Source: a bacterium (lineage in GTDB: Bacteria; Muiribacteriota; UBA6191). From it: a stretch of DNA of 49,624 nt. A model generated the notes under the pieces. The model did no database searches. It was not told the origin of the DNA and saw nothing but the letters and a program-made list of their open reading frames with translations. The stretch spans positions 1 to 49,624 of the forward strand of contig JAYZAC010000156.1 in assembly GCA_036339875.1 (NCBI GenBank), given 5' to 3'. Each line of letters begins with the position of its first letter. Position 1 is the first letter of the stretch. Positions 5,907 to 31,739 of the stretch are shown here, piece by piece. The translations under genes were made by a program, and so were the position numbers.

Positions 5907-5925
5907 TAATTGTTGTTAATATAAT

Positions 5926-5955: not shown

Positions 5956-5972
5956 ACGTCAACTAATTGTAA

Positions 5973-7367: not shown

Positions 7368-7501
7368 CACTACTCCTTGCAAACAAAAAATTACTTAAAG
7401 CCTGATAGTTTGCCTTGGCTGTGTTTAAGAATCAAGAGAATTTATTGAATCATAAGAGACGATTTAGAATACTTGACCACTGTAAGTTAAAATAAACCTC
7501 T

Positions 7502-10096
7502 ATGCAGCAGACTATTAATCGAAGTTGGTGGATTACAATACTTACTTTCATTGCGTACGGATTTTTTTTCCTAGCATGGGTTCTAGTCGTTGAACCATAT
7601 CCAGATCGAGATTCTGTAAGTCAATTTTATTTTCCTTTCAAAAATTATCTTCAAGCATCTATTGAAATTGGTAACGATTTCATTTTTTTAAAAGGTTTAA
7701 TTCCTAATGAATATCCAAATGGCGGACTTCTTCTAGCTGCACTTATATCCTCATTAGGCTTACAAGATTTTGTCTTAAATCAACCATGGCTTGTTAATCT
7801 GATTTTGGTATTCGTACTAAGCCTAATAGCAACTCAATCTGGTTTTAAAGGTGTAAAAAAAATCATCTTCATCTTACTAGTATTTACATTTCCAATTAAC
7901 CAAATAGCACTTAAAAACTTTAATTTACACTCATTCAATTTTATTTTTTTTCTAGGTGGAATGACATTCTTTTTTCGCTTTCTTAAGACTAGAAAACGTA
8001 GTCTTTGTGTATCCGCAATATGTCTACTTTGGTTTGCATGTTCTGTTAAACATCTGGGGGTCGTCTTTTTCGGTATGGGTTGGTTTAGCTTGCTTCTCTG
8101 GAAAACTAATAAAAATGAGCCTATCAAAGAATTGTTTAATGTCGCCGGCATTGTAGCTTTACTAACATTGCCATTCTACCTTCATAGTGGAATTAAAAAA
8201 TATGTAGTCGGAATAATGGCCCACAATCCCGAATTAGATTCTAGTCTAGCGCTGTCAATCACTTCAATAACTGCAATTGTCGGTATTTTAGTTTTAATAG
8301 CCTGCGCTAAAAGTAATCGCTCAAAAGCACAAATACCAAAGTTGTTTGATAATGGTTTAATTTTTTTCCTCTTGGCAATTAGTTTGTGTTGGATAATTAG
8401 CTTGGATTCTGATTTTAGCCCCATTCCCTGTATGTTATTCAGCATGATAATAGGCTCATTAACTATCATAATTTTCATGCTTCAATTTGATTTCAAAGAT
8501 TTAAGAGGTCTGAAGATACTTTTTATATTAATTAGTCTAACTTTGGCTTTAACTCTCTATTTTTCACGACTAGCGCAAGTTTCAATGATCTTCTTTCCAA
8601 CGATATATGTTCTCATGTTAGTGACTTTCGAGGAGAATAAAACCCTTAAATTGCCCATCCTCATCCTAATCACGTTTGTGACTGTAAGTAACTTTTTTCC
8701 AAATCTAGAAGACTTAGAAAACAGAATTGGAAGCAAAGGCTTCGGACTTTATGCGCGTGGTTTAAATACTTTGCATCAAAACCTTCTCAATTGGAATAAA
8801 TCAAAAATTAGTCTATACCGTAACTCCATCGAGAATAGTCTATCCAATGTAGATTTTGAAAAGGGGCAAAAAGCACTTTTGACACTCCATCCTCATCTAC
8901 ATTCTTATACAGCTCTCGAACTACAATTTCCCGATCATTTTTTGTTCTCTTTTCCTCCGATGACATTATTGGAACAATTACCGTCAGAAAAGCTTGAAAA
9001 AATTTATGAACATTTGAAAATCAATAAACTAGAAGGTTTGAATTACTTACTGGAAGAAGGGGAGTTTCCCCTGCTCATAGTTGGTAATGATGTTTGGTCC
9101 GAATACCTAAAAATTAAAATAGATCTAAATAATATCCCGAATATTTTTGAACGTAACGAATTTTGCAATTGGTTAAATTTAGCTTTATGGAAATACTTAA
9201 TTGAGCATCAATCTCTAGATGAATTATATGATGTGCAATTTTTACCATCTGAATCCCAACCTGAACTACTGCTTTATATACATCGTAGGTTTGATAAGGT
9301 ACGAAATACTAATCAAATATCTTACAAGCCTGGTTTAGTTGCAATTAAAGATAAGTATCGCTTAGTAACTAACCCTGAAATTCTAATTGCTAAATTACTT
9401 TTTGAAAAAGCTTCAATTCATTTCGATAAAAACCAGTTCTGGGAAGCAAGTATACTTTTACGTTTGGCTAATCAATTAGATCCTCTACACAAAGATATTC
9501 AACAAGACCTTAAAATTGTCCTTAATAGTTTGCCCAATAGTTTTAAGGCTAAACATAAACTTTATCAAATTGGAGGAGAAGCTGATAATTTACAACTTGG
9601 ATTAAATCAATTGTGGGGCTATCAAGGGAGTCTAGAGGGTTTGAGCCCAGAGGTCAGGGCTTATTTAATAAACGATAATGCAATGACTATCCCGAAGCCG
9701 TTATTAAAAACACGTGAAACTGCAGTAGGGAGCAATAAAGCCGATTATTATTTTAAAAAAGCTTCAGAAGTTTTTAATTCAAATCAAAAATTAGCTAAAG
9801 ATTATCTAATCCAAACATTGCAATTGGAACCAAGTCACACCGAGGCTCTGCGAGACTTAAATATTTTAGAGCAGAACTTATCTGCACAAAATTTTATTTC
9901 AAAACAAGAAGATCTTGCTACTAAGACTAAAGCAGAAAAACTATTTCAAGAGAGCTCAATGATTGTAAAGCAGAATAAAATAAGGGCCCTTATTCTTCTT
10001 CGCAAAGTCTTAAAACTTAACCCCAATCATAAGAAAGCTAAGAGGAGCTTAGAGCTACTTAAGTTACAACTAGGTATAAACTCAGAAAGTAAATAA
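7502..10096 (+). CDS. Multi-pass membrane protein, GT-C glycosyltransferase-like, with 3 TPR-like modules (paralog 1)
   Basis: TM helix followed by VEPYPDRDS; YPNG; LKNFNLH; KHLG; HNP; SNFFP; RGLNTLHQNLLNW; about 400 aa hydrophobic, then a soluble domain and LxPxH TPR-like units. Confidence 0.6.
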   Translation: MQQTINRSWWITILTFIAYGFFFLAWVLVVEPYPDRDSVSQFYFPFKNYLQASIEIGNDFIFLKGLIPNEYPNGGLLLAALISSLGLQDFVLNQPWLVNLILVFVLSLIATQSGFKGVKKIIFILLVFTFPINQIALKNFNLHSFNFIFFLGGMTFFFRFLKTRKRSLCVSAICLLWFACSVKHLGVVFFGMGWFSLLLWKTNKNEPIKELFNVAGIVALLTLPFYLHSGIKKYVVGIMAHNPELDSSLALSITSITAIVGILVLIACAKSNRSKAQIPKLFDNGLIFFLLAISLCWIISLDSDFSPIPCMLFSMIIGSLTIIIFMLQFDFKDLRGLKILFILISLTLALTLYFSRLAQVSMIFFPTIYVLMLVTFEENKTLKLPILILITFVTVSNFFPNLEDLENRIGSKGFGLYARGLNTLHQNLLNWNKSKISLYRNSIENSLSNVDFEKGQKALLTLHPHLHSYTALELQFPDHFLFSFPPMTLLEQLPSEKLEKIYEHLKINKLEGLNYLLEEGEFPLLIVGNDVWSEYLKIKIDLNNIPNIFERNEFCNWLNLALWKYLIEHQSLDELYDVQFLPSESQPELLLYIHRRFDKVRNTNQISYKPGLVAIKDKYRLVTNPEILIAKLLFEKASIHFDKNQFWEASILLRLANQLDPLHKDIQQDLKIVLNSLPNSFKAKHKLYQIGGEADNLQLGLNQLWGYQGSLEGLSPEVRAYLINDNAMTIPKPLLKTRETAVGSNKADYYFKKASEVFNSNQKLAKDYLIQTLQLEPSHTEALRDLNILEQNLSAQNFISKQEDLATKTKAEKLFQESSMIVKQNKIRALILLRKVLKLNPNHKKAKRSLELLKLQLGINSESK

Positions 10097-12216
10097 TGGA
10101 AATCATCAAGTTGCTAAGATCAAATAGTAAATACACTCATGCAGTATTGATCGGAACGATTTTATCTATTTATTTCTTGGCCTGGCAAATTAAAGTCAAC
10201 TCAGTGCCCTCTGTGGAAGACTTCAGTAGTTTTTTTTATCCATTTTTGAACTATTTATATGCGTCAATAGTATTCGATCCAGAATACTCATTTTTATCTA
10301 GGGTTGTTATCACTGATAATTCACCGCTGGGTCTACTAATTCCCGCCGCAATTATAAGCACTCTAAATATGCAGCTACTATTCATTAAGGCTCATTATCT
10401 CCTCGTAATTCCGTTACTTTTTGCTATCTGCTCTACTACATTATTTTTTAATTTTGATGTAAAAACACGCTGGATATTTATCGCTACAATATTCTTTTTT
10501 CCACCGATCCAAATTCTTCTTAAAGCAGATTATACTAACAGTAGCAGCGTCGTATTTAGCCTACTGTCTGTATTATTTATGCGATCTTACATAAATAAAA
10601 ATAAATTAGCTCATTTACTTGGGTTTTCAATTTGTACATGGTACTCAGTAATTACCGGTATCAGTGGATTACTTTTCTCTATCAACATTCTGATAGCCAC
10701 CTATGCATCGTTAATAAAAGACCATCAAAAAATTATCAAAGTTTCTATGGCGATCCTCATTATTGCCTTACTTTCATCTCCTTTTTACTATGCTGAAAAC
10801 TTAACTTTTTTCATCAATGGATTATTAATTCCAGATCATTTGCCCAAGACCTTATCAAAAGTATTCATCTTAATGATGCCAAATTTACTCCTATTATCTA
10901 GCTACCTTTCTGCTAATAATATTAAGACTTTAGACTGCCCAAAGTTCTTCAAAGATTTCTTATTACTTTTTTGTTTTCTAATATTAAGCATATATCTGAT
11001 CTGCAAAGATCCTCAATCAAGTACTGGTGGTTGGATTACCCTAATAACCTTTGTTCTTGGGTATATCACCATTACGTTTATAGACTTTAAGTACAAGTTC
11101 GAGAAGATCTGTAAATTTGAATTTCTTGTAACAATTGTTTGCATGATGAATTGTTTAATATTATACGAATTCTCTAACCAAAAAATTCTAGCTTTTTTGA
11201 CTTTTTCTTTATTGCTTGTGTGTATCCAATCCTTGTTACAAACTAGAAGTAATTCACGAAAACTATGCTTTTTACTCGTATGCTTTTGCTGTAGTAACTT
11301 CTTTCCAACAAGTAGTCAACTACAGAATTGGCTAGAAGGTAATGGAATGCGTTTAAGTGTCAATTTAGTAAAGAATCTCCACTTTAACTCACTCGGCTGG
11401 CAAAAATCGGAGATGAAAATTACTCAATTAGAACTAGAAACTATTCTGAGTAGGTATAATTTTTCTAATGAGAAATCTCTTTGTGCTTTTAACAACCTGC
11501 ACTTTAACTCTAGATTACTATTGAGTATTCCTGTAAATTTTTCATCATCTATACCTAGTTTAAAGAGGTTAGATGAATTATCTCAAGAAGATCTGAATAA
11601 GTTTTTGATAACTTATGGTCAACGCAAACAAGAATTGTTCGAAGACTGGCTGAGAAAAAAAAGATTTAGCTACCTTATCGAGGGTGTAAAACCTTGGGAG
11701 ATCGATCATCAACCATCAGCACCCTTAGCTGAATTACAAAACAATCCAAATCGTAAAGGTGAAATCGGTATGTCTTTAAGTAGATCTTTTGTTGAGTATC
11801 TTCATAACTCAGGTAAGATTGAGAAATATTATGAAAAATACGAAATACCCCAGAATGACCCTCGCATAAATCTCTACGTTAATCGAAGTATGCCTAAGGT
11901 TAAGGATCAACCAAAAAGAATGAATCTGGAACTTAGTCGATTAGGCATTCATCTTCCGATTGATCTTTATCGAAAGAACCCACCAGACTGGTTTCAAAAA
12001 ATTCATCCCAAAATTCAGAACCAAATACGGTCTAGAGAAGCCATAAAAATTCATACTTTAGGTAAAAAATTCTTAGATCAAGCTAACTATTTTGAAGCTT
12101 ATAAGCGGCTAAGAATCGCTTTTGAAATTGATCCAACTAATTCCACAATAAAAACTGACTATGAAGCGATTCAGTCACAATTACCAAATTCTTTCGATAA
12201 ATTCCTAGAAAATTGA
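10096..12216 (+). CDS. GT-C-like/TPR membrane protein, degenerate paralog 2
   Basis: Keeps YPFLNYLxAS, PPIQILLK, SNFFP, NSLGW, LHF and one TPR-like unit; lacks PDRD, LH, KHLG; TAATG-coupled to paralog 1. Confidence 0.55.
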   Translation: MEIIKLLRSNSKYTHAVLIGTILSIYFLAWQIKVNSVPSVEDFSSFFYPFLNYLYASIVFDPEYSFLSRVVITDNSPLGLLIPAAIISTLNMQLLFIKAHYLLVIPLLFAICSTTLFFNFDVKTRWIFIATIFFFPPIQILLKADYTNSSSVVFSLLSVLFMRSYINKNKLAHLLGFSICTWYSVITGISGLLFSINILIATYASLIKDHQKIIKVSMAILIIALLSSPFYYAENLTFFINGLLIPDHLPKTLSKVFILMMPNLLLLSSYLSANNIKTLDCPKFFKDFLLLFCFLILSIYLICKDPQSSTGGWITLITFVLGYITITFIDFKYKFEKICKFEFLVTIVCMMNCLILYEFSNQKILAFLTFSLLLVCIQSLLQTRSNSRKLCFLLVCFCCSNFFPTSSQLQNWLEGNGMRLSVNLVKNLHFNSLGWQKSEMKITQLELETILSRYNFSNEKSLCAFNNLHFNSRLLLSIPVNFSSSIPSLKRLDELSQEDLNKFLITYGQRKQELFEDWLRKKRFSYLIEGVKPWEIDHQPSAPLAELQNNPNRKGEIGMSLSRSFVEYLHNSGKIEKYYEKYEIPQNDPRINLYVNRSMPKVKDQPKRMNLELSRLGIHLPIDLYRKNPPDWFQKIHPKIQNQIRSREAIKIHTLGKKFLDQANYFEAYKRLRIAFEIDPTNSTIKTDYEAIQSQLPNSFDKFLEN

Positions 12217-12234
12217 GTACTACAGTGTATTAAA

Positions 12235-15200
12235 ATGTATCGGATGAACAGAAAACTTATAATTCTGGGTTTAGAAATTCTACTTGGTTTTCTAGCTTGC
12301 TTCATATTTCTTTGGGCATGGGTTTGCTATGTGGAACCATTTCCTGATAGAGATTCACTAAGTCAAACGCTTTACCCAATTTTGAATTATTTAAAAGCTT
12401 CTACTTTGATCGGTAACGATTTCATATTTTTAAGGCAACTTATGCCTTCAGAATATCCCTCGGGAATTTTATTTATCCCTTGGATCGTTGCATTCGTGGG
12501 CTTACAACAACTATTTTTAGAAACTCCTTGGTTATTAAGCACTTTTCTACTCATACCACTGTGCCTAACGGCATGGCTCGTACAAGCCAAGAAACTCAAT
12601 ACTTGGTTCGTTTTATTCGTCATTTTTTTCTTTCCTCCGGTTCAACTATGCCTCAAGAATCTTAATTTGCACTCCTTTATTGTGCTCTATAATTTGGCCG
12701 CTATTTTCCTGATTTATGACTATCGTAAAAATGAAAGATTCATTTCTTTGATTCTAGGAATAATATTTTTTATTTTCACGTGTAGTATCAAACACCTTGG
12801 AATCATCATTTTTATAAATTTGTGGATTACTTTTTTACTTTGGAAAAAAAGAAAAAGTGAATCACTAATGATTCCGATTATTGTAGGCCTAGCTATTATC
12901 TTGGTGGGAATTCAGGCCTATCCTGAACAGAGTTTGATTCCTTATTTTGAATCATTAAAGAACTACAACCCACTCATAAGTTCCACATTGCTATGGATAA
13001 TGGGGGGATCGGCTCTTTTTATTTTACTATTTTCATGGTTTCAAGGAGTTTCAGAGGATTTTGGAAGATTACAAATTGAGCATCTATTCATAAATCTTGG
13101 ATTTTTTGTAATCAGTGGATTATTAATTTTGGGTATCTTCACACCGCAACCAGATTTTCATGGTCTGATTTGGATGTTATTAAGTTTTGTAATAGGCAAT
13201 GCCTGCTTAATCGGCGTATTGAGATGGGGGCGGTTTGAAACTGATAACGGATTTATGATTCTTGCATTCATTATGCTAGGGGTTACCGCTTTGGTATTCT
13301 ACTTTTCAAGACTCGGTCAAATATCAGCCTTCTTTGTTTTACCATATCTATTGCTACTCATTCTTATCATTCAATCCAAAGTAGATAATTGGAAATTATA
13401 TTGTTTGGGAGCTACATTTTTTTTAATATCTAACTTTTTTCCTCCACTTAATACCTTGGAATCTATAGCAGGCTCTTACGGATTTCGTTTGTATGCGAGA
13501 GGATTCAACATGATTCATCAGAATCCCTTAGGCTGGCAGAAGACTAATGTAACAATCAATCGTAAATCAATAGATAAAGTCTTAAAAACAGTCAACTTCA
13601 CTCAATTAAAATCACCTATTCTCATGGGAAGATATGGAATTCATCATCACGATGCTGTTCAGTTTCATTATCCAAATCAATTTTTTTACGATATTCCAAA
13701 AATATCTTTACCTGAAGACATTTCATCTAATCATCTAAAATCAATCTATTCCAGCCTGCTGAAACTGAAAGATAACTTCTACACAAATTTACTGGAGGAG
13801 GCTCGTATTCCAATCATCTTAGTGGGCAATAGCCCATGGGTAAAATATGAAAAGGAATCATTATCTAAGATCGAAAAAGGGAATATGTTGAAGGCATCAA
13901 ATGTAAAAAGTTGGCTACATGATCCATTCTTCGAATTTTTAGAAAAACAGGACTTACTATCCATATTTTACAAAAAGTATTCCATAGAATCGTACCTTTC
14001 TAAATTGGATCTATACGTACACAAAAAACTACTCAACATTTCAAAGCAAAGTTCAGATTCAAAATCTTTAAAGGTATTACTCGATGACTATAAGAAATAT
14101 AAAAATCCAAATTTAGAAATTGCCCAAAATTATCTATTGAGATCGGATCTATATCTAGAGCAAAAAAAAGTTCTTGCTGCCATAGTCTTACTAATGAAAG
14201 CAACTCAACTAGACCCTGATAATCAATCCATAAATCATAAAATAGAGCACGCTCGAAAACTCCTAAGAACATGGGAAGGGGAAATCTTAGAAAAATACGG
14301 CTGGGCTAAACTAGCTGATATTTTAGAAGATTCTGATTCTTTACCTTGGAAAAAAAAGGAGGACTGGAACAATCATGTTTCTGATATTGAAATGGATTTT
14401 AATTCGGAACAACGCAAAGAAGAGGCCCGAAACTTATTTAAGAAAAGTACCGAATTCTTTGATAAAAATCCACAGCGAGCTATGTCGCTTCTGCAGAAAG
14501 TATTGAAACTTGATCCATTTCATGAAGAGGCAATTAAAGATCTCAAAATTTTGAATGAAATCAAGTTATCAAAACCTGAAGAAACAGAAAATAATAAAAG
14601 AAAAGCCGAGTTACTATTCAAGGAAAGTACTAAATTTTTTGAAATTGATCCATCTAAAGCAGCTGCAATTCTTACTGAAGTTCTAAGGCTGGACCCAGAA
14701 CATAAAGCTGCAAAAGAGGATTTAGGTTTAGCTGAGATCCGTATCAGTAAAGGCTGGAAAGGACCAAAAACAAAGGAACATAAAAAAGCGGATGAGTTAT
14801 TCAAGAGGGCTTCCGAAATATTTAAGTCGAATCCTTCAATGGCTGAATCGATGCTGAAAGAGGCTATAAAATTAGACCCTGCCCACGAAGAGGCTCTTCA
14901 GGATTTAAGAGTCATTGAAATCGAATCCTCTAGAATTAAAGCCTCAAATCTATATCATGAAAGTTTAAAGTATCAGCAAAGGCAACCATTAAAAGCGTTA
15001 AATCTTCTGGAGGAAGCTATCAAACTTGATCCTAATCATGAAATAGCTAAAAGAGATATTGAGCAGATTAAAATTTTTCTAGAAAGTAATTCTCTTAGAA
15101 AAGCCCAAGCAAAATGGTTTTTTTCAAAAGCTAAGAGTATGCTTACAACAAATCAAACGCAAGCAAGGCTAAACCTTCGTAAAGCTCTAGAAATGGACCC

Positions 15201-15252
15201 TGGAAACATTGAAGCTCACGAGCTCGCCAATCAACTATTTGGCAAAGAATAA
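12235..15252 (+). CDS. GT-C-like membrane protein with 6 TPR-like modules (paralog 3)
   Basis: VEPFPDRDS, YPSG, LKNLNLH, KHLG, SNFFP, ARGFNMIHQNPLGW; six AxxLFxxS...LDPxHxxAxxDL-type units. Confidence 0.6.
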   Translation: MYRMNRKLIILGLEILLGFLACFIFLWAWVCYVEPFPDRDSLSQTLYPILNYLKASTLIGNDFIFLRQLMPSEYPSGILFIPWIVAFVGLQQLFLETPWLLSTFLLIPLCLTAWLVQAKKLNTWFVLFVIFFFPPVQLCLKNLNLHSFIVLYNLAAIFLIYDYRKNERFISLILGIIFFIFTCSIKHLGIIIFINLWITFLLWKKRKSESLMIPIIVGLAIILVGIQAYPEQSLIPYFESLKNYNPLISSTLLWIMGGSALFILLFSWFQGVSEDFGRLQIEHLFINLGFFVISGLLILGIFTPQPDFHGLIWMLLSFVIGNACLIGVLRWGRFETDNGFMILAFIMLGVTALVFYFSRLGQISAFFVLPYLLLLILIIQSKVDNWKLYCLGATFFLISNFFPPLNTLESIAGSYGFRLYARGFNMIHQNPLGWQKTNVTINRKSIDKVLKTVNFTQLKSPILMGRYGIHHHDAVQFHYPNQFFYDIPKISLPEDISSNHLKSIYSSLLKLKDNFYTNLLEEARIPIILVGNSPWVKYEKESLSKIEKGNMLKASNVKSWLHDPFFEFLEKQDLLSIFYKKYSIESYLSKLDLYVHKKLLNISKQSSDSKSLKVLLDDYKKYKNPNLEIAQNYLLRSDLYLEQKKVLAAIVLLMKATQLDPDNQSINHKIEHARKLLRTWEGEILEKYGWAKLADILEDSDSLPWKKKEDWNNHVSDIEMDFNSEQRKEEARNLFKKSTEFFDKNPQRAMSLLQKVLKLDPFHEEAIKDLKILNEIKLSKPEETENNKRKAELLFKESTKFFEIDPSKAAAILTEVLRLDPEHKAAKEDLGLAEIRISKGWKGPKTKEHKKADELFKRASEIFKSNPSMAESMLKEAIKLDPAHEEALQDLRVIEIESSRIKASNLYHESLKYQQRQPLKALNLLEEAIKLDPNHEIAKRDIEQIKIFLESNSLRKAQAKWFFSKAKSMLTTNQTQARLNLRKALEMDPGNIEAHELANQLFGKE

Positions 15253-17273
15253 TGAAAAAAAGTATCAAAACTTGGTACAGATTTACACTGTATCTCGCTT
15301 TTCCGCTTCTCTATTGTATGGCCTGGGTAACTGTTGTTGGGCCTTCACCAGATAAAGACGGAATCTATCAGTTGTATTATCCACTCCTCAATTTCCTGAA
15401 GGGTTCTGAAGCACTTGGCCTAGATTACTTCGTTTTATCTAGCGAATTTTTTTATGACGCTTATCCTGATGGAGCAGCTATTCTCTCATGGTTAATTTGT
15501 TTTCTTAAACTTCATTCCTTCTTCCTAAAAGAACCATATCTAATAATTATATTCTTACTAATACCGTTTATACCCATTCTGTTAGTCACTCCATTAAAAT
15601 CGAGAAATTTGCTCATCATTTATGGATTGTTTTTTCTTCCAGCCATGCAAATCTGCTTGAAAGGCTTCTCACCTCATGCCTTCAATACATTATTCTCATT
15701 CGCTGGAGTTTTAAGTTTCGTCATTTACTATCGTAATAAAAGTATCAGATGGCTTATCTACACTATTTTCTTATTCTGGGTATCGATGATTTTCAAGCAC
15801 ATGGGCGTGCTTCATTTTTTATCATTTTTGAGTGCATATTTCATATGGCAACTGCTAGGTAAAACTAGATCAATGCTCGAAAATATTTTGCTAATGTTAA
15901 CTCCTTTATTAGCAATTCCTCTATACCCTTGGGGACAAAGTTCTGAATATCTTCAAACTAGTCTATCTCACGCTCCGTTTCTAAGAACATATTATTTATT
16001 GGTATATTTTATTTTTGCAATTCTTATACTTATTCCAACAATTATTTTAATAATAAAATCTAAATCGATTAATTCATCAAAATCAAAATGCTTGTGGTTG
16101 GAATCATCGGCTCCCGTTTTGATTGCTATTTGCCTAATGTTCTGGGTATGGGTTGAACCTCCCTCGGAGCAGAAATCAATGGCTAATGCACTCCTAGTTT
16201 TAGCATTAGGTTATGCTGCCTGTACTTATTTAATTACGACTTACAGAATTACGGGAATTCGATCATTACTTATTCTTATTACATTGCTTACGTTAAGCCA
16301 TAACTGCTCGATTTATGTCTCTTGGATAGCAAAAAGCTCTTACTTATTTTTTTTACCACAGCTCCTACTTATGTTTTTATGGTCAATGCATAGGCCAAGA
16401 TATGGAAAGTTAGTATTAGTAGTAATTGGACTAATTCTACTAAGCAACTTATTTCCTAAATTAAGTCTATTAGAACAAAATCCACGATTAAATAAGTTGT
16501 CATCAATTTATTTCGAAGGATTTAAATCAATTCATCAAAATCCACTGGGTTGGAATAGATCTGAAATCAGAAAAATGCGCAATAACCTAGATCGTACTTT
16601 TCAAGCTGAAGGTATACAAAATGGTAGCCTCTATATTAATCATGCTCTACATTACCATTCTCGAAATACCTTATTATTTGCTCGAAATATAATACATTTC
16701 ATCGGTTCAATTAATTCACTAGATGACTTAAATGAAAAATCAGCCCTATCTCTGAAACAAGCATGGTTGGATAAAAAATCAAAATTATTCTCAGAATGGT
16801 CTCACTCAGGCAAAATTAGCTTAATAATTACTGGCAAGGATCCTTTTACAAATCGAAAAAATGAAATCTTTAATTTAAGTAATCTCATGACTAAACAAAA
16901 TTTTCATCCTAACCAATTTCTTCAGGCAATTGGTATGCAGTATTTCTCGCACTTAAAGTCTTCGAAAACACTCCAAGTATTCTACAGACCGGTAAGCGTT
17001 GCATCACTCAAGTCATTAACTTTTTGGATTCACCGAGAACTCAAACCAAAAGAAAAACAACTCTCAGCTTACAATGTTTGGAAATCTGAACTTACTGGGC
17101 TGACGAATAGATTCAAAGATGAGGCCATGCATCTCTTTCTCGAAAGTAATCAGTACTATGATTCAAATCCTGAGAAATGCCTTCAATTACTTAAAAAAGC
17201 AAATCACCTAGATCCAGAAAATACAGAAGTTAAAAAAGATTTAGAAGCTCTAATTCAGAGATTAGAAAAGTAA
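15252..17273 (+). CDS. GT-C-like/TPR membrane protein (paralog 4)
   Basis: GPSPDKDG, YPDG, LKGFSPH, KHMG, SNLFP, HQNPLGW, LHYH; one TPR-like unit; TAATG-coupled to paralog 3. Confidence 0.6.
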   Translation: MKKSIKTWYRFTLYLAFPLLYCMAWVTVVGPSPDKDGIYQLYYPLLNFLKGSEALGLDYFVLSSEFFYDAYPDGAAILSWLICFLKLHSFFLKEPYLIIIFLLIPFIPILLVTPLKSRNLLIIYGLFFLPAMQICLKGFSPHAFNTLFSFAGVLSFVIYYRNKSIRWLIYTIFLFWVSMIFKHMGVLHFLSFLSAYFIWQLLGKTRSMLENILLMLTPLLAIPLYPWGQSSEYLQTSLSHAPFLRTYYLLVYFIFAILILIPTIILIIKSKSINSSKSKCLWLESSAPVLIAICLMFWVWVEPPSEQKSMANALLVLALGYAACTYLITTYRITGIRSLLILITLLTLSHNCSIYVSWIAKSSYLFFLPQLLLMFLWSMHRPRYGKLVLVVIGLILLSNLFPKLSLLEQNPRLNKLSSIYFEGFKSIHQNPLGWNRSEIRKMRNNLDRTFQAEGIQNGSLYINHALHYHSRNTLLFARNIIHFIGSINSLDDLNEKSALSLKQAWLDKKSKLFSEWSHSGKISLIITGKDPFTNRKNEIFNLSNLMTKQNFHPNQFLQAIGMQYFSHLKSSKTLQVFYRPVSVASLKSLTFWIHRELKPKEKQLSAYNVWKSELTGLTNRFKDEAMHLFLESNQYYDSNPEKCLQLLKKANHLDPENTEVKKDLEALIQRLEK

Positions 17274-20200: not shown

Positions 20201-20515
20201 TATTTCCACTTTAGGAGGAGACGACTCAAAATGAGAGATCAATTTATCCAGATTCAGTGCTCTACGAATAATCTCTTCTTGATTAAGAGTATCAGAGTGA
20301 GTAACTAAAGTCCTTTGAGAAACTGATGATGTTTTCGAAATAGATTGATCGCCACCGAGTTTTGTAGACAAATTTTGAAGTAAAACTTGATAAGATTTCG
20401 ACTCAATAATATCGATTTTCTGATAAAAGTTTTCGAGAATTTGAATAGTATTAGCTTCTGCGCAGTAGATGCCAGAAAAGACTATTAGTACTAGTTTTGT
20501 AAAAATCTTATACAC
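17255..20515 (-). CDS. Secreted protein: N-terminal alpha/beta-hydrolase-fold domain plus long helical region (paralog A)
   Basis: Signal peptide ending AEA; IHGHG, FRAMR, LMGIR, nucleophile elbow AHSGG, DYxSxFxRxW, CCESLP; Leu/Glu/Lys-rich C-terminal 750 aa. Confidence 0.62.
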   Translation of the reverse strand: MYKIFTKLVLIVFSGIYCAEANTIQILENFYQKIDIIESKSYQVLLQNLSTKLGGDQSISKTSSVSQRTLVTHSDTLNQEEIIRRALNLDKLISHFESSPPKVEIVEEEENQGVMIQRLKISDSLVGVFEARIVFPSSSIHKHSMILGIHGHGDNCSSFVSQNVSSKLLENGFGIFTISFRAMRRIYESSISRELVKLGHHLMGIRLYETYIGWQILRSHPLVDSNKICVLAHSGGSVVANLFVRVFPNFKALVYDYTSSFHRDWDKLCCESLPKLNPYQKNLQSTKFSPIPALKVTYGFTKDLNTILKFFSDAVLGSASSKSVESSTDTTHSISLEDDCSNHYASLQDKCYLRKQIEDYILQTTNSDSSTYSKLRIPRSKVQYLLEKLILKKDSSEDEIKSNFLEVIRIIKRMKKPEVRDSLINRANESICKLGVEYCDLWMISLAKDPSTSYLVENFDNKIYWSAVTSGSVKASVLISHLPRIESKVHSLLNLLHGTANPNFVQLLQNKLNNLLREDSNQALRECVNELIEKAEFKSSCWKFSVGSDYVNRTGSLPKYLKNLSKIDDQKLSDAMNHLHDEPDELLTGLLGNITTNKLSKDIEATLAIQIENLYSESLKLGNHEEFIKELIPYLKLFNLQTRMFWVSRALLSPSIDSSIYETKAYRLEIMQEALEVMSHSELAKIISNHNDLFDDSLLEQMIYQALEIDRLDHADVLLSWLSETSQLSKESKVIQDLKKELSSTKLELRIQFQTLLQKISAGEEFGELEVWYEERSNRRSSVQNLIKPELAQNLLKKFPNYDLNESSLRSWFCFYKLFNELNYEKVYEWLRMSLINNLSLADTEDSKKIKLAINLLKDGELKLFETVLSRVTESQHESEVRLYRELFLLRPAIRDLQKSIPLIKTLDSFSRSRFIRILFDSISRSEFLHNYSALIELSELAENVGSSKLIFEWIRCAIRMEFFTDAVMELDKFHSEQKKNEFKDYRWLEELSELWLRLGYAHKAREITLINLRRSCSNFNCYHEITNLVLNAIDFDQALNELHIVKRFFKQLNDWLSKHDSYRENFCLDVGFEEYCDKNGYFSNL

Positions 20516-23844: not shown

Positions 23845-23923
23845 GAAATTTAGACTAGCTCCTAACCAAAGATCCTATTACTGTTTCAATTATACACTTT
23901 AGTAAACTGCCGAGGAATTAAAA

Positions 23924-26008
23924 ATGATGCCAGAGAAGGGTTCAAGATTTTTAACAGCCATTCAAGCATTTGTTTTTTGGTTAATTTCTGTGATCTGTCT
24001 AAGTCTGTGGGTATATCTTGTTGAACCTTTTCCTGACCGCGACTCCGTTCACCAGCTCCTTTTTCCTTATTTGAATTCTTTGAGTTTATCTGGATGGATA
24101 AGTTCTGATCCATTGTTTTTGAAGTCCGCTTTTCTTGATACCTATCCGTGGGGTCTGTCACTAATATCTTCTCTTCTCGGTTTTACAGGGCTATGGGAGA
24201 AAGCTTTTCAATATCCATGGCATCTACCAGCCCTTTCACTTATCCCAATAGGAATCGTAGTCTCCATACAAAAATTTAAACTTTCAGAAAAAGTTTTGTT
24301 TTTTGTTATCTTATTTTTCTGCCCATTTGTCCAAATCGCACTCAAGTCATACTCCTACCACGGACTTATTACATTATTGGTATTACCTGGCGCATTGATA
24401 GCGCTTCAAGGAATAGCTACGAAAAATAAAAAACTATTTTGGATGGGTGTTCTAACAATTTGGTACAGCGCTACTCTCAAGCATTTAGGTGCGATTCACC
24501 TGGGCAACTTAATGCTTAGTTATTTTATCTGGAAATTCGTGAAACAAGAGCTAAGATTTGTTGATTTATTTACTGGATTCCTACTCTTACTATTTCTAAT
24601 TCCATTTTATCCAATAGAAGGACTAAGCGATTATATTGGAATTGCTTTTAGTCATAACCCTAAGCTTTCTCCAATGGTAACTCTTTCGGTTCTCTTATTC
24701 GTTGGATTATCGGTTTGGGGAATTCTTTTATGGTCTGCAAGAGGTCGAACTTTACGTCATAAAGTTCGATTTTTTTATAACGGAAGAGGGGTACTGGGTC
24801 TGCTGACCTGTTCAACAGTAATCATTTCTTTTGGTGCCGATCAATATAGTTTTGAACTAATGGGAATCAGTTTTATCTTCGGCTATCTAAGTATTTTTCT
24901 TGCTTTAAGAAAAGTTGAACTTAAAGATCCTTCTGGATTAATGATGTTAGCTATTCTCATAACATTCACACATGGTTGTATACTTTACTTTTCCTTTCTT
25001 GGGCAAATCTTTGCAAATTTCTTTTTACCAGTAGGGTTAGCATTTGCCCAAAGTTTTTATGAGTCGATCAAAACTTTCCGATATGCTTTAGCATGTTTCT
25101 GTTTACTTATTTCAAATTTTGGTCCCGGACTTGATAACGCTGAACATTTATTTTGGGAATGGGGACATCATTATTACACTAGAGGACTTAATGGATTGCA
25201 GCATAATCCTTTAGGTTGGCAGACTAGTACTGTTCTAAAACTACGGAATAGGCTGACCAAAATACTCTTAAAGTTAAATTACTCTGAATCAGACGAACGT
25301 ATTCCTATTTTGTTTAGCGGATTACATTTTCATACACGTCTTCAATTTTTATATCCAAAAAATGTTTGGCAACCATTACCAGAGTTTCATTTGCCTCAGT
25401 TTATTCGTCATGATCGACTCGACATTCTTGCAGACGAATTGAATTCAGAGCTCAAAATGAAAAACTTCATTACAGAAGGAGGTTATCCAGTAATTATTCA
25501 TGGGAGGAGACCATGGACAAATTATCCCGTTTTCAAATTTAATTGTGATTCCTTTCACCGAGATGCAGAAAGTAGAAGATCTAATTGGGAAGAAACTATA
25601 TCTGACTGCATAATTGAAAAAATATTCGATGATCCAAATCTCATAAAACAATACAATTTAGTTGTTCTAAAAGAGGATAAACAACTCCTCAAAGTATATA
25701 TTCATAAAAATCTTATGAGTCCCCAAAAATCACTTTATTTTTTTGGTTTGAAAGAATATGAAGAACAGTGGAAATGGTACCAGAAATTAAACTGGTGGCA
25801 AAAAATTCTATTCCAAAAAGTAAACCCCTCTGAACGTTTATTCCATTTATTTCGTCAAGCGAATGATGAGATGGACCAAGATAATTGGCTTGAAGCATGG
25901 AAACTATTGAAGAAAGGGTTAGAAATTGAACCAGACCATGCTGAAATGCTTAAAGATTTATTAATTGTTGAAGAAGAATTAGGTGTTCGTAAACGTGAAA
26001 CACCATAA
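23924..26008 (+). CDS. GT-C-like/TPR membrane protein (paralog 5)
   Basis: VEPFPDRDS, YPWG, LKSYSYH, KHLG, HNP, SNFGP, RGLNGLQHNPLGW, LHFHT; one TPR-like unit; GAGG RBS. Confidence 0.6.
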   Translation: MMPEKGSRFLTAIQAFVFWLISVICLSLWVYLVEPFPDRDSVHQLLFPYLNSLSLSGWISSDPLFLKSAFLDTYPWGLSLISSLLGFTGLWEKAFQYPWHLPALSLIPIGIVVSIQKFKLSEKVLFFVILFFCPFVQIALKSYSYHGLITLLVLPGALIALQGIATKNKKLFWMGVLTIWYSATLKHLGAIHLGNLMLSYFIWKFVKQELRFVDLFTGFLLLLFLIPFYPIEGLSDYIGIAFSHNPKLSPMVTLSVLLFVGLSVWGILLWSARGRTLRHKVRFFYNGRGVLGLLTCSTVIISFGADQYSFELMGISFIFGYLSIFLALRKVELKDPSGLMMLAILITFTHGCILYFSFLGQIFANFFLPVGLAFAQSFYESIKTFRYALACFCLLISNFGPGLDNAEHLFWEWGHHYYTRGLNGLQHNPLGWQTSTVLKLRNRLTKILLKLNYSESDERIPILFSGLHFHTRLQFLYPKNVWQPLPEFHLPQFIRHDRLDILADELNSELKMKNFITEGGYPVIIHGRRPWTNYPVFKFNCDSFHRDAESRRSNWEETISDCIIEKIFDDPNLIKQYNLVVLKEDKQLLKVYIHKNLMSPQKSLYFFGLKEYEEQWKWYQKLNWWQKILFQKVNPSERLFHLFRQANDEMDQDNWLEAWKLLKKGLEIEPDHAEMLKDLLIVEEELGVRKRETP

Positions 26009-28337
26009 ATCATTACCTACTTTAATCGTTCAGATAATTCCGTTTCTAATCATTTTCTCCGTAGGGTTTATATGGTTAAGTAACTGGATTAAAATCGTAG
26101 ATCCATTTCCTGATCGTGATTCAATAAACCAGTTCTACTTTCCATTCTTAAATTATTTAAAAGCCTCAAAGTTCGTTTCGGCGGAGCCAAGCTTCATAAC
26201 TGAAATTTGTTTTTCGGGAAGTTATCCGTCAGGCTCAGCTATTTTCCCATGGTTAATATCGCTAATTGGTTTACAAGATACTTTTATTGATAACCCATTC
26301 CTGCTTTATACACTTTTTTTATTTTTGATAGCTGCTATACCGTATTACTTTAACCTAAACAATCACTCACGGCTGCAACTGGGCTTGTTAATCTTAGCAC
26401 TTCCTATTGTCCAAATTTCATTGAAAGGCTTTTCCCTGCACACTTTTAATGTTTTATTTGCGGTAATTGCTCTTCTTTCATTCCGCTCCTACTTAGCGCT
26501 AAAAAAATTAAAATACTTAGCTATATTTATCCTTTGTTTCTGGATCTCCGTCATTTGTAAACATTTAGGTGCTTTTTATTTATTTAATTTTGCCTTCACC
26601 TTCTTGATATATTCAATCTACTCTAAAAAAATCGATATAAAAGTACCCCTAGCTTTATTAATTATTAGTATTGCTAGCTTACCTTTTTACCCTCTACAAA
26701 ATCTGAAAGATTATTTGTTAGAAGTGATCACACATAATCCGCACATAAGTCTTTATGAGTTCTTTTCTATTGGATTTATATTTGTAGCAATAGCTACTTC
26801 AATTTTATATTTTATAAGTAAACATGCATCACTAGGACTCAAGCCCAGACTCTGCAAAGGACCTCTGATAAGTTCTATGCTGACAATCTTTGCTGGCTTT
26901 CTATGCACAATCCAATACGATGCCTACACCGGAAATAAGCATGTTATTGTTTTTTTCTTTCTGGGCTATAGCTTTTTGGCATGGTTAATATCGCACTATA
27001 ATCTGAAGAATTCACATGGATTTTTTTATCTATTTTGCACAATCACATACATTAATTCCACATTACTCTACTGCTCATTGATAGGAAAAACCTTCTACAT
27101 TTTCTTTCTACCAATCATACTGATCGCGATTCTGGAGTACTTAGATACCAAAAGCTTGTTAAAACGATTATCTTCTATTTTTCTTGCTTTAATCGTTTCC
27201 AATTTTTTCCCCTCGCTTGAAGAGATTCAAAAAAGCGGTGGCGATAGAGGAGAGGATATCTATGTAAACGCATTCAATTCGCTTTATGTTAATCCGCTAG
27301 GATGGGAAAGATGCGAAATACCAAATCTGAGAAGAGAACTCGTAAAAATATTCAGTACTATCAAAATGAATGAAGTCAGTAATTTTTACATTATTGAAAA
27401 TCTACATTTTCAAACTAAATTAAGCTTAGAATTTCCTGAAAACTTCTTTTATTCTTTTTCTTCAATCTATCGATTAGATGACCTTCCAACAGAAAGGCTG
27501 CTGGAATTAAAAACTAATTTTAATCGTCAACGAATAAATACTTTCTTAAATTGGATAGAAAAAAAACGAGTATCCTTTTTCATTCTAGGTACAAGACCGT
27601 TTACTACAAATATCGAAATTGCACCAAATCTGGAAATTTTTTTCGAATCCCAGACTCACGACATACGATCTTTTGCTGAATCATTAGGCACGGCCTACAT
27701 TCAATATCTGAAAACAAATCAAATTCTTAATAAGTTATATAGCTGTGTAAAATTACCAAACAAAAATCCAAGGCTTAAAATTTGTGTATTAAAATCTGCG
27801 CAATTAAATAATCCAATAGAGCGTCATTGGAATTCTTATCTTCAAAAAATAGCGACTGACTACGAAATGGAGCAAACACGGCCTCTGCCATATTGGATTA
27901 AAAATCTCGACGAGGGAAATCGAGCTCGACTCCTCCAAAAAAAAGCTGGTACGTTATATGGTGAGCTTGAATTGGAAAGTAAATCTTTAAGTTTTGAAAA
28001 AAAAGTTTATCGACTTAAAAAAATCCTAGAGTTAGATCCAAATCACTCCGGAGCAAAGCAAGATCTCAATGGCCTAATAGAAGAATTTAATAACCCTAAA
28101 ATATCTGATGATACCGAAAGTTTTGCAGCTGAAAATACTATTCAAGAAAGATCCTCAGCCGAAAAAATATTTAACCTATTTAAGAAAGCTAATGATCAAA
28201 TGGAAAAAAACAATTGGCTTGAGGCTAGGAAACTATTAAAACAAGGCCTTGAGATCGATCCAAATCATACTGAAATGCTTAAAGACCTTGAAATCGTTAA
28301 TAACGAGTTGAAAAACCTCCAATTAAAGAAACCCTAA
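25983..28337 (+). CDS. GT-C-like/TPR membrane protein (paralog 6)
   Basis: VDPFPDRDS, YPSG, LKGFSLH, KHLG, HNP, SNFFP, VNPLGW, LHFQT; two TPR-like units; start codon uncertain. Confidence 0.6.
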   Translation: MFVNVKHHKSLPTLIVQIIPFLIIFSVGFIWLSNWIKIVDPFPDRDSINQFYFPFLNYLKASKFVSAEPSFITEICFSGSYPSGSAIFPWLISLIGLQDTFIDNPFLLYTLFLFLIAAIPYYFNLNNHSRLQLGLLILALPIVQISLKGFSLHTFNVLFAVIALLSFRSYLALKKLKYLAIFILCFWISVICKHLGAFYLFNFAFTFLIYSIYSKKIDIKVPLALLIISIASLPFYPLQNLKDYLLEVITHNPHISLYEFFSIGFIFVAIATSILYFISKHASLGLKPRLCKGPLISSMLTIFAGFLCTIQYDAYTGNKHVIVFFFLGYSFLAWLISHYNLKNSHGFFYLFCTITYINSTLLYCSLIGKTFYIFFLPIILIAILEYLDTKSLLKRLSSIFLALIVSNFFPSLEEIQKSGGDRGEDIYVNAFNSLYVNPLGWERCEIPNLRRELVKIFSTIKMNEVSNFYIIENLHFQTKLSLEFPENFFYSFSSIYRLDDLPTERLLELKTNFNRQRINTFLNWIEKKRVSFFILGTRPFTTNIEIAPNLEIFFESQTHDIRSFAESLGTAYIQYLKTNQILNKLYSCVKLPNKNPRLKICVLKSAQLNNPIERHWNSYLQKIATDYEMEQTRPLPYWIKNLDEGNRARLLQKKAGTLYGELELESKSLSFEKKVYRLKKILELDPNHSGAKQDLNGLIEEFNNPKISDDTESFAAENTIQERSSAEKIFNLFKKANDQMEKNNWLEARKLLKQGLEIDPNHTEMLKDLEIVNNELKNLQLKKP

Positions 28338-28341
28338 CTCA

Positions 28342-30717
28342 ATGACTTCTGTAGCCAAAAGAATAATACCTTTTTTAACGGTGCTTGGTTTAGGTGTGAC
28401 GTGGCTAATCGCTTGGATACAATTCGTGGATCCTTTCCCAGACAGAGATTCGATTAATCAATTTTATTTTCCTTTTTTGAATTATCTCCAGGCTTCAAAA
28501 TTACTATCTATAGATACTGATTTTTTGATTAATAATTCCTTTTCCACAAGTTATCCAACGGGTGGTGCCATTTTCCCGTGGCTTATATCCAAAATAAATG
28601 CTCAGAGTTTTTTTATAAAAAATCCATTCTATATCTTCTTAATCTTATTACCCTTTATAGCCTGCGTACCTTATTTCTTCAAAACCAGCGTCAAATCTCG
28701 GTTACTAATCGGAATATTAATTTTAGCTCTACCTATGACTCAATTATCATTAAAAGGTTTTTCTCTACAGGGCTTCAATGTAGTTTTTTGTCTCATCGCT
28801 ATTCTTGCTTTTCGTTCATATTTAGCCCGCCGTCATTCGTCATATCTAATAGTTTTTATCATTTGTTTTTGGCTTGCAATAATTCCCAAGCATTTAGGCG
28901 CATTCTATTTTGTAAACTTCTTAATGGCCTATTTAATATGGGTCTTTCAATCGAACAAATTAGATCTAAAAGTAACCACTGCACTGCTAGTAATTACTCT
29001 AATCAGTATACCCTTTTACAACATCGATAATTTGCAAACCTACTTGATCAATGTGATTACTCATAACCCATACCTAAGTGTAAGTACTTTTTTTATTATG
29101 GGAGGTTTAATTTTTATTGCTGGGACCTTGCTTCTTATTACTGTAAATAGAAAGTCGACACTACTAACTTTACCTAAGCTTAGTAATGCTCCTTTATTAA
29201 GTTGTGTTCTACTTTGCTTCGCAACATACCTTACCACGGTTTCCTACGACGCAAAAATTGGGAATCAAGATGTTGTTCTATTTTTTATATTGGGATACGG
29301 CTTATTGAGCTTCTTTTTATTACGATATAAAACCGGTACAACTCGCGGTTTCATATTATTATTTTGTGCCATAACTTATGTAAACTCTACTTTACTTTTC
29401 TGTTCAATGATAGGTAAAACTTTTTACAATTTTTTCTTACCTATAATGCTTATTTCGATACTGGAATTTAAAGAAACTAGAAGCTTTCAAAACAAAATTA
29501 TTTTCATCATAATCACTATCCTGATTTCTAATTTTTTCCCCTCAATCGATGCAATACAAAAACTAATGGGAGAGCGAGGAGAGAATATTTATATCAACGG
29601 TTTTAATGCCGTTTATGTAAATCCATTAGGCTGGGAAAAGTGTCAAATTCCAAAATTAAGGTCAAAATTAGAAAAAGTCTATTCTAATTCAAAGTTTGAG
29701 AGCGAAAGTAGTCTTTACATAGCTGAAAAACTTCATTTTCATACAAAGCTAGCTCTTGAATTTCCAGTCAATTACTTCTTTCCATTCCCATCAATTTATC
29801 GACTAGATAATTTACCACCAGACAGAATAAAAGTACTGCTAGATAAATATCGAAAAATCGGTGAAGAAATGTTTTCTCAATGGCTTGATGAAAACAAAAT
29901 TGAATTGTTATTGATTGGTCAAAAAAATTTCACAAGCTTTGTAGGTGATCCCCCAAATATTGATTCTCTTATCAAAAAAGATTCAGCTGATTTGAACGAT
30001 ATAGCTAGATCTATAAGTAGAGAATTCCTTAAATTCCTTGAACAAGGCGAATACCTTCCCAGATATTACGATTGCCAGTTATTACCACATCAAAATCCAC
30101 GATTAAAAGTCTGTATATCAAAAAAATTAAAAAAGAAAACAGTTGTTGAAAATCGCTGGAATCGTCATTTATCAGACCTCGCTAGTCGTTATGAGATGAC
30201 TCAAAGAAGACCGCTTCCCAACTGGATTACTAACTTAGATGATGAAAATCGTATGCGACTTTCACAAAAACGAGCTGGTGCAATTTATGACGAACTCGAA
30301 AAAAACGAAGTAAGATTATCTAAAACTAAAATCTATGCAAAACTCCGCAAAATAATTGAACTAGACCCTGCACATGTGGGTGCACTGGAGGATATCTTAG
30401 CCCTACAAGAAAAGCTTACTAAAAAAGATTGGATTCTGTTGAGTAAAAAATATCAACCTATTGATTCAAAAGCTTTGGAAGATTCGCTGACCTCAGTTAA
30501 AACAAATAACCAAAATCCAGAATTTGAATTGTTAAAGGTCCTCACAGATGATCAAAAAGCGCATCATTTATTTATTCTCAGCAACCGCTACTTTCATACC
30601 GATCCAAAGCACTGCATGAATTTATTAAAACAAGTATTGAAATTTAAACCTAATCACTCTGAAGCTCAGAAAGATCTGATCGTCTTAAAAAAACGAATCC
30701 AAAGTTCAAAGAATTGA
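28342..30717 (+). CDS. GT-C-like/TPR membrane protein (paralog 7)
   Basis: VDPFPDRDSINQFYFPFLNYL (identical to paralog 6), YPTG, KHLG, HNP, SNFFP, VNPLGW, LHFHT; two TPR-like units. Confidence 0.6.
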   Translation: MTSVAKRIIPFLTVLGLGVTWLIAWIQFVDPFPDRDSINQFYFPFLNYLQASKLLSIDTDFLINNSFSTSYPTGGAIFPWLISKINAQSFFIKNPFYIFLILLPFIACVPYFFKTSVKSRLLIGILILALPMTQLSLKGFSLQGFNVVFCLIAILAFRSYLARRHSSYLIVFIICFWLAIIPKHLGAFYFVNFLMAYLIWVFQSNKLDLKVTTALLVITLISIPFYNIDNLQTYLINVITHNPYLSVSTFFIMGGLIFIAGTLLLITVNRKSTLLTLPKLSNAPLLSCVLLCFATYLTTVSYDAKIGNQDVVLFFILGYGLLSFFLLRYKTGTTRGFILLFCAITYVNSTLLFCSMIGKTFYNFFLPIMLISILEFKETRSFQNKIIFIIITILISNFFPSIDAIQKLMGERGENIYINGFNAVYVNPLGWEKCQIPKLRSKLEKVYSNSKFESESSLYIAEKLHFHTKLALEFPVNYFFPFPSIYRLDNLPPDRIKVLLDKYRKIGEEMFSQWLDENKIELLLIGQKNFTSFVGDPPNIDSLIKKDSADLNDIARSISREFLKFLEQGEYLPRYYDCQLLPHQNPRLKVCISKKLKKKTVVENRWNRHLSDLASRYEMTQRRPLPNWITNLDDENRMRLSQKRAGAIYDELEKNEVRLSKTKIYAKLRKIIELDPAHVGALEDILALQEKLTKKDWILLSKKYQPIDSKALEDSLTSVKTNNQNPEFELLKVLTDDQKAHHLFILSNRYFHTDPKHCMNLLKQVLKFKPNHSEAQKDLIVLKKRIQSSKN

Positions 30718-30802
30718 ATACCTTACCTCTAATTAAGCGAGTAACCCAACGGTATAAAAATACTAATTACCGAGAAGCACACACCTGCTAATTAAATCGA
30801 TT

Positions 30803-31633: not shown

Positions 31634-31739
31634 TTATGTTTCCTTTTAATAGTCTGTTTGAAGTTCGTCCATAAATAGTATCCCAAACTCGCGTCAGTTG
31701 CACAAGCAATTACAGCTTAGTCTTGCCTATTTACGATGT

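Follow-up and report, generated by a model that had tools for sequence, protein, structure and literature searches.

Enzymes of the GT-C superfamily of glycosyltransferases, for example ArnT, PMT/Pmt4, STT3/PglB/AglB and ALG12, combine a GT-C fold with a C-terminal domain on the periplasmic or lumenal side. The superfamily is further marked by a conserved acidic motif that follows helix 1, in the first extracytoplasmic loop, and by the use of a polyprenyl-phosphate-linked sugar donor. The eukaryotic O-mannosyltransferases TMTC1-4 belong to the GT-C/PMT clan and carry C-terminal tetratricopeptide repeats (TPRs); they are described as proteins with 11 helices, a DUF1736 region, a DD motif located in lumenal loop 1 and an uninterrupted series of about 10 TPRs in the lumen (PMC7801869). 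Here we describe seven paralogous genes, P1-P7, which encode proteins of a comparable layout and are located in a stretch of 49,624 nucleotides (nt) of bacterial DNA (contig JAYZAC010000156.1 of assembly GCA_036339875.1, Muiribacteriota), called the window below. The genome from which the window is taken (G000; 2.89 Mb, 203 contigs, 85% complete) was compared with, among others, two congeneric genomes (G001 and G002), a member of genus g2 (G003) and a member of genus g6 (G007).

Similar to TMTC1-4, the window proteins possess about 11 or more membrane helices and an acidic pair after helix 1, followed by TPR-type helices which are here predicted to be non-cytoplasmic. Several paralogs exist in both cases, different targets being a feature of the TMTCs. 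Unlike the TMTCs, the window family has an alpha/beta middle domain and one to six separate modules of 47 amino acids (aa) with linkers. DUF1736 found no match in the window proteins at E-values up to 0.1, and they do not qualify as TMTCs; the correspondence is a parallel of layout. With ArnT (PDB 5ezm, 5f15), PMT/Pmt4, STT3/PglB/AglB and ALG12 the proteins have in common the polytopic membrane domain (Z 15-18), the acidic motif in the first outward loop and the soluble domain after the last membrane helix. They differ from these enzymes in that no Pfam or NCBIfam model of this kind matches the window proteins, the link to PMT_2 is only transitive, and the family is small.

The subject of this work is the way in which the modules became distributed over the paralogs, in particular over P5, P6 and P7. 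A Drosophila survey describes chimeric genes derived from tandem duplications with ends inside genes (PMC4069613). We propose, with a probability of about 0.82, that P5 and P6 have similar ends as a result of one ancient tandem duplication of this type, with its ends inside two adjacent genes. The relevant features are listed below; a one-residue indel divides the modules into a long and a short class.

P5: 23924..26008, plus strand, 694 aa; one long-class module (aa 636-682, nt 25829-25969), the probable source of the copy in P6
P6, the chimera: 25983..28337, plus strand, 784 aa; P6/7-type body and first module (aa 652-698, nt 27936-28076)
P6, 3' part: plus strand; junction zone, then the probably P5-derived tail and module (aa 726-772, nt 28158-28298)
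P7: 28342..30717, plus strand, 791 aa; probable ancestral architecture; first module aa 641-688 (nt 30262-30405)
P7, last module: aa 736-782, nt 30547-30687, plus strand
Duplication unit, copy 1: 25825..28100, plus strand; detectable part, ends accurate to about +/-30 nt, the left end may reach ~25767
Content of copy 1: plus strand; P5 3' end with module and stop, P6 start, body and first module
Duplication unit, copy 2: 28154..30429, plus strand; P6 3' end with copied P5 module and stop, P7 start, body and first module
Junction zone in P6: 28092..28154 (aa ~704-724), plus strand; P6/7-type linker meets P5-derived sequence

The DNA evidence consists of repeats with one constant spacing of 2329 nt, which three separate repeat families (D1, D2 and D5) have in common. 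Segment 25839-25980 recurs at 28168-28309 with 71% identity and this spacing, and so do the repeats in the N-terminal regions of P6 and P7 (26082/28411 and 26412/28741). When the DNA was compared with itself at a fixed ungapped offset of 2329 nt and identity was scored in 60-nt windows, values of 0.22-0.45 were obtained up to position 25780. From 25810-25840 the identity climbs from ~0.35 to 0.57-0.77, and it continues unbroken, mostly at 0.5-0.77 with local dips at 27490-27640, across the stop codon of P5 and the start of P6 and along the entire body of the latter; past ~28090, a few codons beyond the first module, it is 0.25-0.35. The stop codons of P5 (26006-26008) and P6 (28335-28337) are aligned with each other, 2329 nt apart. 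Local protein alignment matches P6 residues 721-776 to P5 residues 631-686 in G000, and P6 708-785 to P5 621-694 in G002, which locates the junction within P6 residues ~704-724. The three genes start at 23924, 25983 and 28342 (2, 0 and 1 mod 3), and since the period of 2329 is 1 mod 3, equal to the frame difference from P5 to P6, the copied P5 tail falls in the P6 frame. The same collinearity is present in G002 at an offset of 2314, which is also 1 mod 3. A constant period, unit ends in two genes, an in-frame junction and an unduplicated outgroup (see below) are the marks of an offset tandem duplication, and all four are found here.

The start codon of P6 seems to be a GTG, so that the gene shares 26 nt with the P5 3' end (positions 25983-26015, compared with 28335-28344); this N-terminus is alike in three species, and the P6 position homologous to the ATG of P7 reads TTA. 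As the duplicated unit brought along the P5 3' end, P7 would have its native translation-start context ahead of it.

The protein comparisons point in the same direction. The paralogs can be aligned over ~620 residues, and in these cores P6 and P7 are 47% identical, every other pair showing 19-32% (P5-P6, 25%), in agreement with the initial annotation of the window, which had called the P6 and P7 bodies the closest. It had also noticed that the last module of P6 matches the module of P5. This match has 66% identity and ranks first among the 120 pairs that can be formed from the modules (z 4.5), for which the mean identity is 28.5% (sd 8.8); the second-ranked pair, the first modules of P6 and P7, is at 49%. 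Phylogenetic trees were calculated separately for the cores (first 600 residues, 30 rows) and for 73 modules. The core tree shows the clades of P6 and P7, each with three species, as sisters at 97/99, with the single genes of G003 and G007 outside. The module tree contains three relevant clades: the P5 modules with the last modules of P6 (99/97), the first modules of P6 and P7 with those of the single-copy genes (99/94), and the P7-type last modules (88/89). The last module of P6 is thus incongruent with the core tree, and forcing it into the group of P7-type last modules was rejected (delta lnL 56.8, approximately unbiased (AU) test p=0.0018).

A second match in the initial annotation, between the last module of P7 and that of P4, did not prove specific. 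With 38% identity and a BLOSUM score of 96, it is 8th by score and 14th by identity among the 120 pairs, which is background for modules of the short class; the P7 last module matches the second module of P3 equally well (42%, score 95). As a test against generic TPR background, then, the P5/P6 pair stands well above it and the P7-P4 pair does not. With orthologs added, the P4 modules and the P7-type last modules become sisters at 73/78. In the core tree P2 and P6/7 group at 90/92 and P4 joins them at 73/62, the other superclade being formed by P5, P1 and P3. All five P7 or single-copy genes have the P7-type last module, as do the deeper lineages P0013/P0014. Since this module already occurs in single-copy genes and P4 belongs to the same core superclade, a swap from P4 to P7 is not needed, and the sequence likeness is compatible with ordinary descent from a shared ancestor.

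The related genomes indicate which arrangement is the older one. G001 and G002 contain P5, P6 and P7 of the same architecture, and in both P6 ends in a P5-type module. G003 and G007 harbor one P6/7-type gene each (800 and 782 aa), composed of body, first module, long linker and P7-type last module. In G003 this gene is located directly after the P5 ortholog, which itself ends in a P5-type module. Among 5.8 billion proteins, 14 P6/7-like clusters with modules were found (one partial); 10 have a P7-type end and 4 a P5-type end, and all four of the latter are P6 orthologs. The chimera is fixed in a single genus, whose members are uncultured marine bacteria.

In G003, two overlapping open reading frames make up the P5 ortholog (L017 14022-14912 and 14899-16002; 296 and 367 aa), a split due to a frameshift or an assembly error. 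The same genome has two more family members, of 652 aa (L017 6798-8756, minus strand) and 632 aa (L018 2045-3943, plus strand), in neither of which the hidden Markov model (HMM) of the modules finds a module. The 652-aa protein is sister to P5 in the core tree (100/99) and the 632-aa protein is a very long branch.

According to our proposal, P5 (body and long-class module) was originally followed directly by one P6/7 gene that consisted of body, first module, linker and short-class last module. In an ancestor of the genus of G000, a segment of ~2.3 kb would have been copied in tandem, with its left end ~70-80 codons short of the P5 stop and its right end in the P6/7 gene, a few codons beyond the first module. 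The upstream copy of the body would have lost its own linker and last module and would now read into the copied P5 tail, which makes it P6, and the downstream copy, P7, would have retained the original end. One event would then account for both the P6/P7 pair and the chimera, and the remaining differences in module number would stem from older tandem expansion and loss, since inherited stably. As in the Drosophila cases, there is one duplication with breakpoints in neighbouring genes, an in-frame fusion at the junction and intact parental copies on either side. It differs from them in that it concerns an operon-like array of bacterial paralogs, is old and fixed in a genus, and has sister genera that keep the unduplicated state. 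Furthermore, the fused parts are homologous domains, module for module, so that the result resembles domain swapping.

Some observations speak against this history. All genomes compared are metagenome-assembled. About 54 nt of P6 (28100-28154) match neither parent at the fixed offset, and the junction zone has diverged too far for the breakpoints to be placeable to the base. The P6/7-type gene of G007 is on a contig of 2.5 kb, which leaves G003 as the only genome for which adjacency to P5 is known. The P5 module of G003 falls inside the P5+P6 clade of the module tree (84/79 with P6 of G002); as branches inside this clade are unresolved, the tree gives no date for the copy in relation to the split of the genera. 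The lineage P0005/P0006 forms an unresolved trichotomy with P6 and P7. Finally, the similarity of the P5/P6 module pair somewhat exceeds that of the P6/P7 bodies, in amino acids (66% versus 47%) as well as in third codon positions (0.47 versus 0.39), an excess which the high conservation of the P5 module between genera can explain.

This last difference would fit two separate events, i.e. a gene duplication that gave P6 and P7 with P7-type ends, followed by gene conversion or ectopic recombination that put the P5 3' end on P6; conversion would also leave the register intact across the stop codon, given that the starts of the downstream genes are homologous. We nevertheless find such a history quite unlikely, as it takes two events where one suffices and there is no homology upstream of the tract to guide a conversion: to the left of 25810, P5 and P6 are at ~0.35, which is background. 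The third-position values, 27/58 codons for the P5/P6 module and tail and 187/484 codons for the P6/P7 bodies, differ little and are both near saturation (an upstream control of 133 codons at the same offset gives 0.32), and there is no sign that the module copy must be younger than the gene duplication. Moreover, the chimeric end is present in 3/3 species of the genus and 4/4 P6-type database clusters, and a P6 with a P7-type end was not seen among them. It is hardly credible, in turn, that the similarities are generic TPR background or convergence, or that the arrangement is an assembly artefact. Most module pairs are indeed only 14-45% identical, and metagenome assemblies underlie the comparison, but the P5/P6 pair is an outlier by 4.5 standard deviations, and the DNA likeness extends past the module through the tail and stop codon into the next gene. 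The arrangement occurs in three assemblies and in contigs of four further studies, and copies that are ~60% identical would be neither collapsed nor invented by an assembler.

The evidence from these contigs is as follows. The 5.2-kb stretch 25600-30800 is present in marine or seawater metagenome runs of 10 studies, and contigs from four runs of four studies tile it at 99% or more. The left end is bridged by X3 record 9 (25600-26058), the chimeric junction by X7 record 27 (27625-28228) from an independent metagenome run, and the right end by X1 record 8 (29920-30792). The Logan contigs are short; some bins are uncovered in X4 and X7, and none of the contigs spans the whole 5.2 kb. In the contigs of the four runs there were neither joints that skip a copy nor polymorphic combinations of modules. 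RNA runs were not listed among the sequencing runs that hold the stretch.

The initial annotation had offered a more general explanation, namely that recombination swaps recognition modules on a conserved core. What holds of this is one recombination-type event, which joined a P5 module to a P6/7 body; cassette swapping, a second swap or ongoing shuffling found no support. The counts in orthologs are listed below.

P1 orthologs: 3, 3 and 3 modules; 4 in G003
P2 orthologs: 1 module in 4/4
P3 orthologs: 6 modules in 4/4; the P3-like gene of G007 has 8
P4 orthologs: 1 module in 5/5
P5 orthologs: 1 module in 4/4
P6 orthologs: 2 modules in 3/3
P7-type orthologs: 2 modules in 5/5

Number and position of the modules are thus kept in the orthologs of the three congeneric species and largely across genera, with P1 and the G007 gene as the exceptions. 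Modules 1, 5 and 6 of P3 form clades by position across genera, from which it follows that the array is older than the genera and was not homogenised. Comparison of G000 with G001 for P1-P3 gave ratios of nonsynonymous to synonymous substitution (dN/dS) of 0.15-0.17 for the modules, similar to those of the membrane cores (0.09-0.21), and of 0.10-0.32 for the middle domains; on these values, the module regions of P1-P3 are under purifying selection. Recurrent shuffling among paralogs to diversify recognition can point to the one true incongruence, the P6 end from P5, to the grouping of the second module of P1 (G000/G001) with the fourth of P3 (86/95), and to a tract of ~9 kb with P1-P3 that is 89-99% identical between two congeners with ~70% identity elsewhere, a sign that recombination does act on the locus. 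Against it stand not only the constant counts, the positional clades and the dN/dS values, but also the AU test for the second module of P1, in which vertical descent is not rejected (p=0.245), the weakly supported, background-level likeness of P7 and P4, and the fact that the 9-kb tract moves whole genes and stops at the P3/P4 boundary. We consider this explanation very improbable; nothing suggests ongoing shuffling, and the other variation in modules is old and stably inherited.

The second module of P1 (9728-9868) and the fourth of P3 (14776-14916) are 45% identical, joint third among the 120 pairs; an origin of the former from the latter was considered and, in view of the AU test, not upheld. 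The second P1 module of G002 is found elsewhere in the tree. The 9-kb tract covers window positions ~6245-15242, i.e. part of an alkaline phosphatase gene and P1-P3, and matches L016 (G001:C83). Its flanks are less similar to G001, with 74-80% on the left (5669-6244) and 66-76% on the right from 15242 on (P4 and a hydrolase gene); P5-P7 are 70-77% identical to G001:C46. The right boundary coincides with the stop of P3 and the start of P4. Either three complete paralogs were transferred by a recent recombination between species, or the metagenome contig is a chimera.

The other four paralogs are located upstream of P5. The range given in the initial annotation begins at 9385, a position inside P1; the gene series begins at 7502.

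P1: 7502..10096, plus strand, 864 aa; GT-C-like membrane core, soluble middle domain, 3 modules (aa 626-673, 743-789, 807-853)
P2: 10096..12216, plus strand, 706 aa; 1 long-class module (aa 645-692)
P3: 12235..15252, plus strand, 1005 aa; 6 modules, each of three helices in the model
P4: 15252..17273, plus strand, 673 aa; 1 short-class module (aa 621-667, nt 17112-17252)

The module numbers of P1-P7 are 3, 1, 6, 1, 1, 2 and 2, both by motif scan and with an HMM built from the 16 modules, exactly as first reported. Also in accordance with the initial annotation, the modules do not form an array of contiguous 34-residue TPRs. They are three-helix units of ~47 aa with linkers of 4 to ~54 aa; in P3, the modules start at residues 626, 727, 787, 848, 899 and 955, which corresponds to start-to-start distances of 101, 60, 61, 51 and 56 residues. 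The family profile matches consensus TPR proteins among the PDB sequences at E 1e-25 and aligns one module to the last repeat plus capping helix of 1na0, a designed three-repeat TPR. P3 passes the Pfam cut-offs for TPR_19, TPR_2, TPR_8, TPR_14 and TPR_11; with the same TPR models, P1, P2 and P4-P7 remain below cut-off or give no match. VIA-align gives Z-values of 9-10 to the TPRs of Sti1, Hop and OGT. AlphaFold predicts three helices per module; for the C-terminal 406 residues of P3 the pLDDT is 83.0, and the pTM of 0.34 means that the mutual placement of the P3 modules is uncertain. By profile match and paired antiparallel helices, the modules are TPR-related. P2 and P5 contribute their only module to the long class, P6 both of its modules, and P1, P3 and P7 the first one; all others are of the short class. 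Except for the first modules of P6 and P7, the long-class modules form a clade in the module tree (98/99); the two exceptions are placed outside it, next to the fifth module of P3 (82/62).

The proteins are composed of three parts, an N-terminal membrane domain, a soluble alpha/beta middle domain and the one to six separate three-helix TPR-like modules. The AlphaFold model of P7 (pLDDT 87.2, pTM 0.81) has helices up to residue 421 and an alpha/beta domain at 436-620, and a crude hydropathy count gives 11 membrane helices with a loop of 64 residues after helix 1. In VIA-align comparisons the model matches ALG12 (Z 18.4), ArnT 5f15 (Z 18.1, root mean square deviation 4.7 A, 401 aligned residues, model 4-599), AglB 3waj (Z 18.1), and STT3, PglB and Pmt4 (Z 15-18); the GT-C matches cover model residues 1-599. 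The top 20 Foldseek hits of P7 are all GT-C enzymes or complexes containing one. A D-R-D, D-K-D or E-D motif directly follows helix 1 in 7/7 paralogs, the second aspartate of the DRD motif (D36) is conserved in at least 90% of 42 sequences, and 14 columns are invariant across these 42 aligned family members. On the basis of the models, the core is predicted to have a GT-C glycosyltransferase fold. Two results weigh against this assignment: only 2 of the Foldseek hits reach E 1e-3, and no window protein matches PMT_2 (PF13231) at E up to 0.1.

In Pfam and NCBIfam scans of the seven paralogs no model reaches the membrane core, and the family profile finds only TPR proteins among the PDB sequences, with nothing for the core. 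The core profile retrieved 125 representatives at E up to 1e-3 among 1.84 billion. When 27 weaker or longer family hits were scanned, 4 passed PMT_2, 2 were below cut-off and 21 gave no match; hhalign of the core with the four weakest-matching PMT_2-bearing hits (three above cut-off, one below) gave 95.4% over 94 columns. The ESM Atlas gave nothing but unnamed clusters and one with PMT_2 on 29% of its members, a lead only. P7-like proteins occur in G000 and in 6/9 other genomes searched of the same bacterial family, and in 0/21 genomes from other families of the same class or phylum. A six-frame search with P7 found no copies beyond P1-P7 in the 2.89-Mb assembly. The proteins form an unnamed, divergent and narrowly distributed family of the GT-C/TPR kind.

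Judged by the analogous ArnT, PMT and TMTC enzymes, the most likely activity of the core is sugar transfer from a lipid-phosphate carrier, at the outer face of the inner membrane. The C-terminal part would be on the same outer side of the cytoplasmic membrane as the transferase activity. The modules most likely hold partner or acceptor proteins, and in this sense we infer that they may serve as 'recognition' modules.

The region between P4 and P5 and the region downstream of P7 contain further genes. The former are part of the context and stand outside the module finding.

17255-20515, minus strand: first of two paralogous genes between P4 and P5
20491-23844, minus strand: second of the two paralogous genes

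These two genes encode proteins of ~1100 aa each. Their N-terminal parts are alpha/beta-hydrolase-like, contain an HSGGS nucleophile-elbow-like motif and share 30% identity; the following ~750 residues are helical. Similar genes occur within the cluster of G002, and one is found in G007. Directly 3' of P7, positions 30803-35391 harbor a gene with an FGE-sulfatase domain and a radical SAM/SPASM gene, both on the minus strand, followed by a B12-binding radical SAM gene and a second FGE-sulfatase-domain gene on the plus strand. The two minus-strand genes adjoin P7 in G001 and G002 as well.

The mechanism proposed for P6 has precedents in other organisms, and no long-standing question is opened by it. 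In the locus described here, an apparent case of domain shuffling becomes a dated and mechanistically explicit event, with the junction located to ~20 codons, the frame arithmetic explained and the parental state surviving in sister genera. It would illustrate clearly, in a bacterium, how a tandem duplication whose ends are offset yields a new domain combination together with a new paralog. A more far-reaching idea, rather doubtful at present, is that the array is a slowly evolving 'specificity island' in which each GT-C paralog is aimed by its modules at its own envelope or secreted proteins. It would further imply, a tentative notion on which we would not rely, that new aims arise by gain and loss of modules and by offset-duplication chimeras, and that blocks of paralogs are exchanged between species, for which the 9-kb P1-P3 tract is a hint. 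If true, such an island would be a bacterial counterpart of the division of labour among TMTC, PMT and TMEM260 enzymes, built from a previously undescribed stand-alone module of 1.5 TPRs. The work also flags an unnamed family of GT-C-fold proteins that is present in seven copies per genome in small marine genomes, and whose separate three-helix modules would be natural handles in a search for the acceptor proteins.

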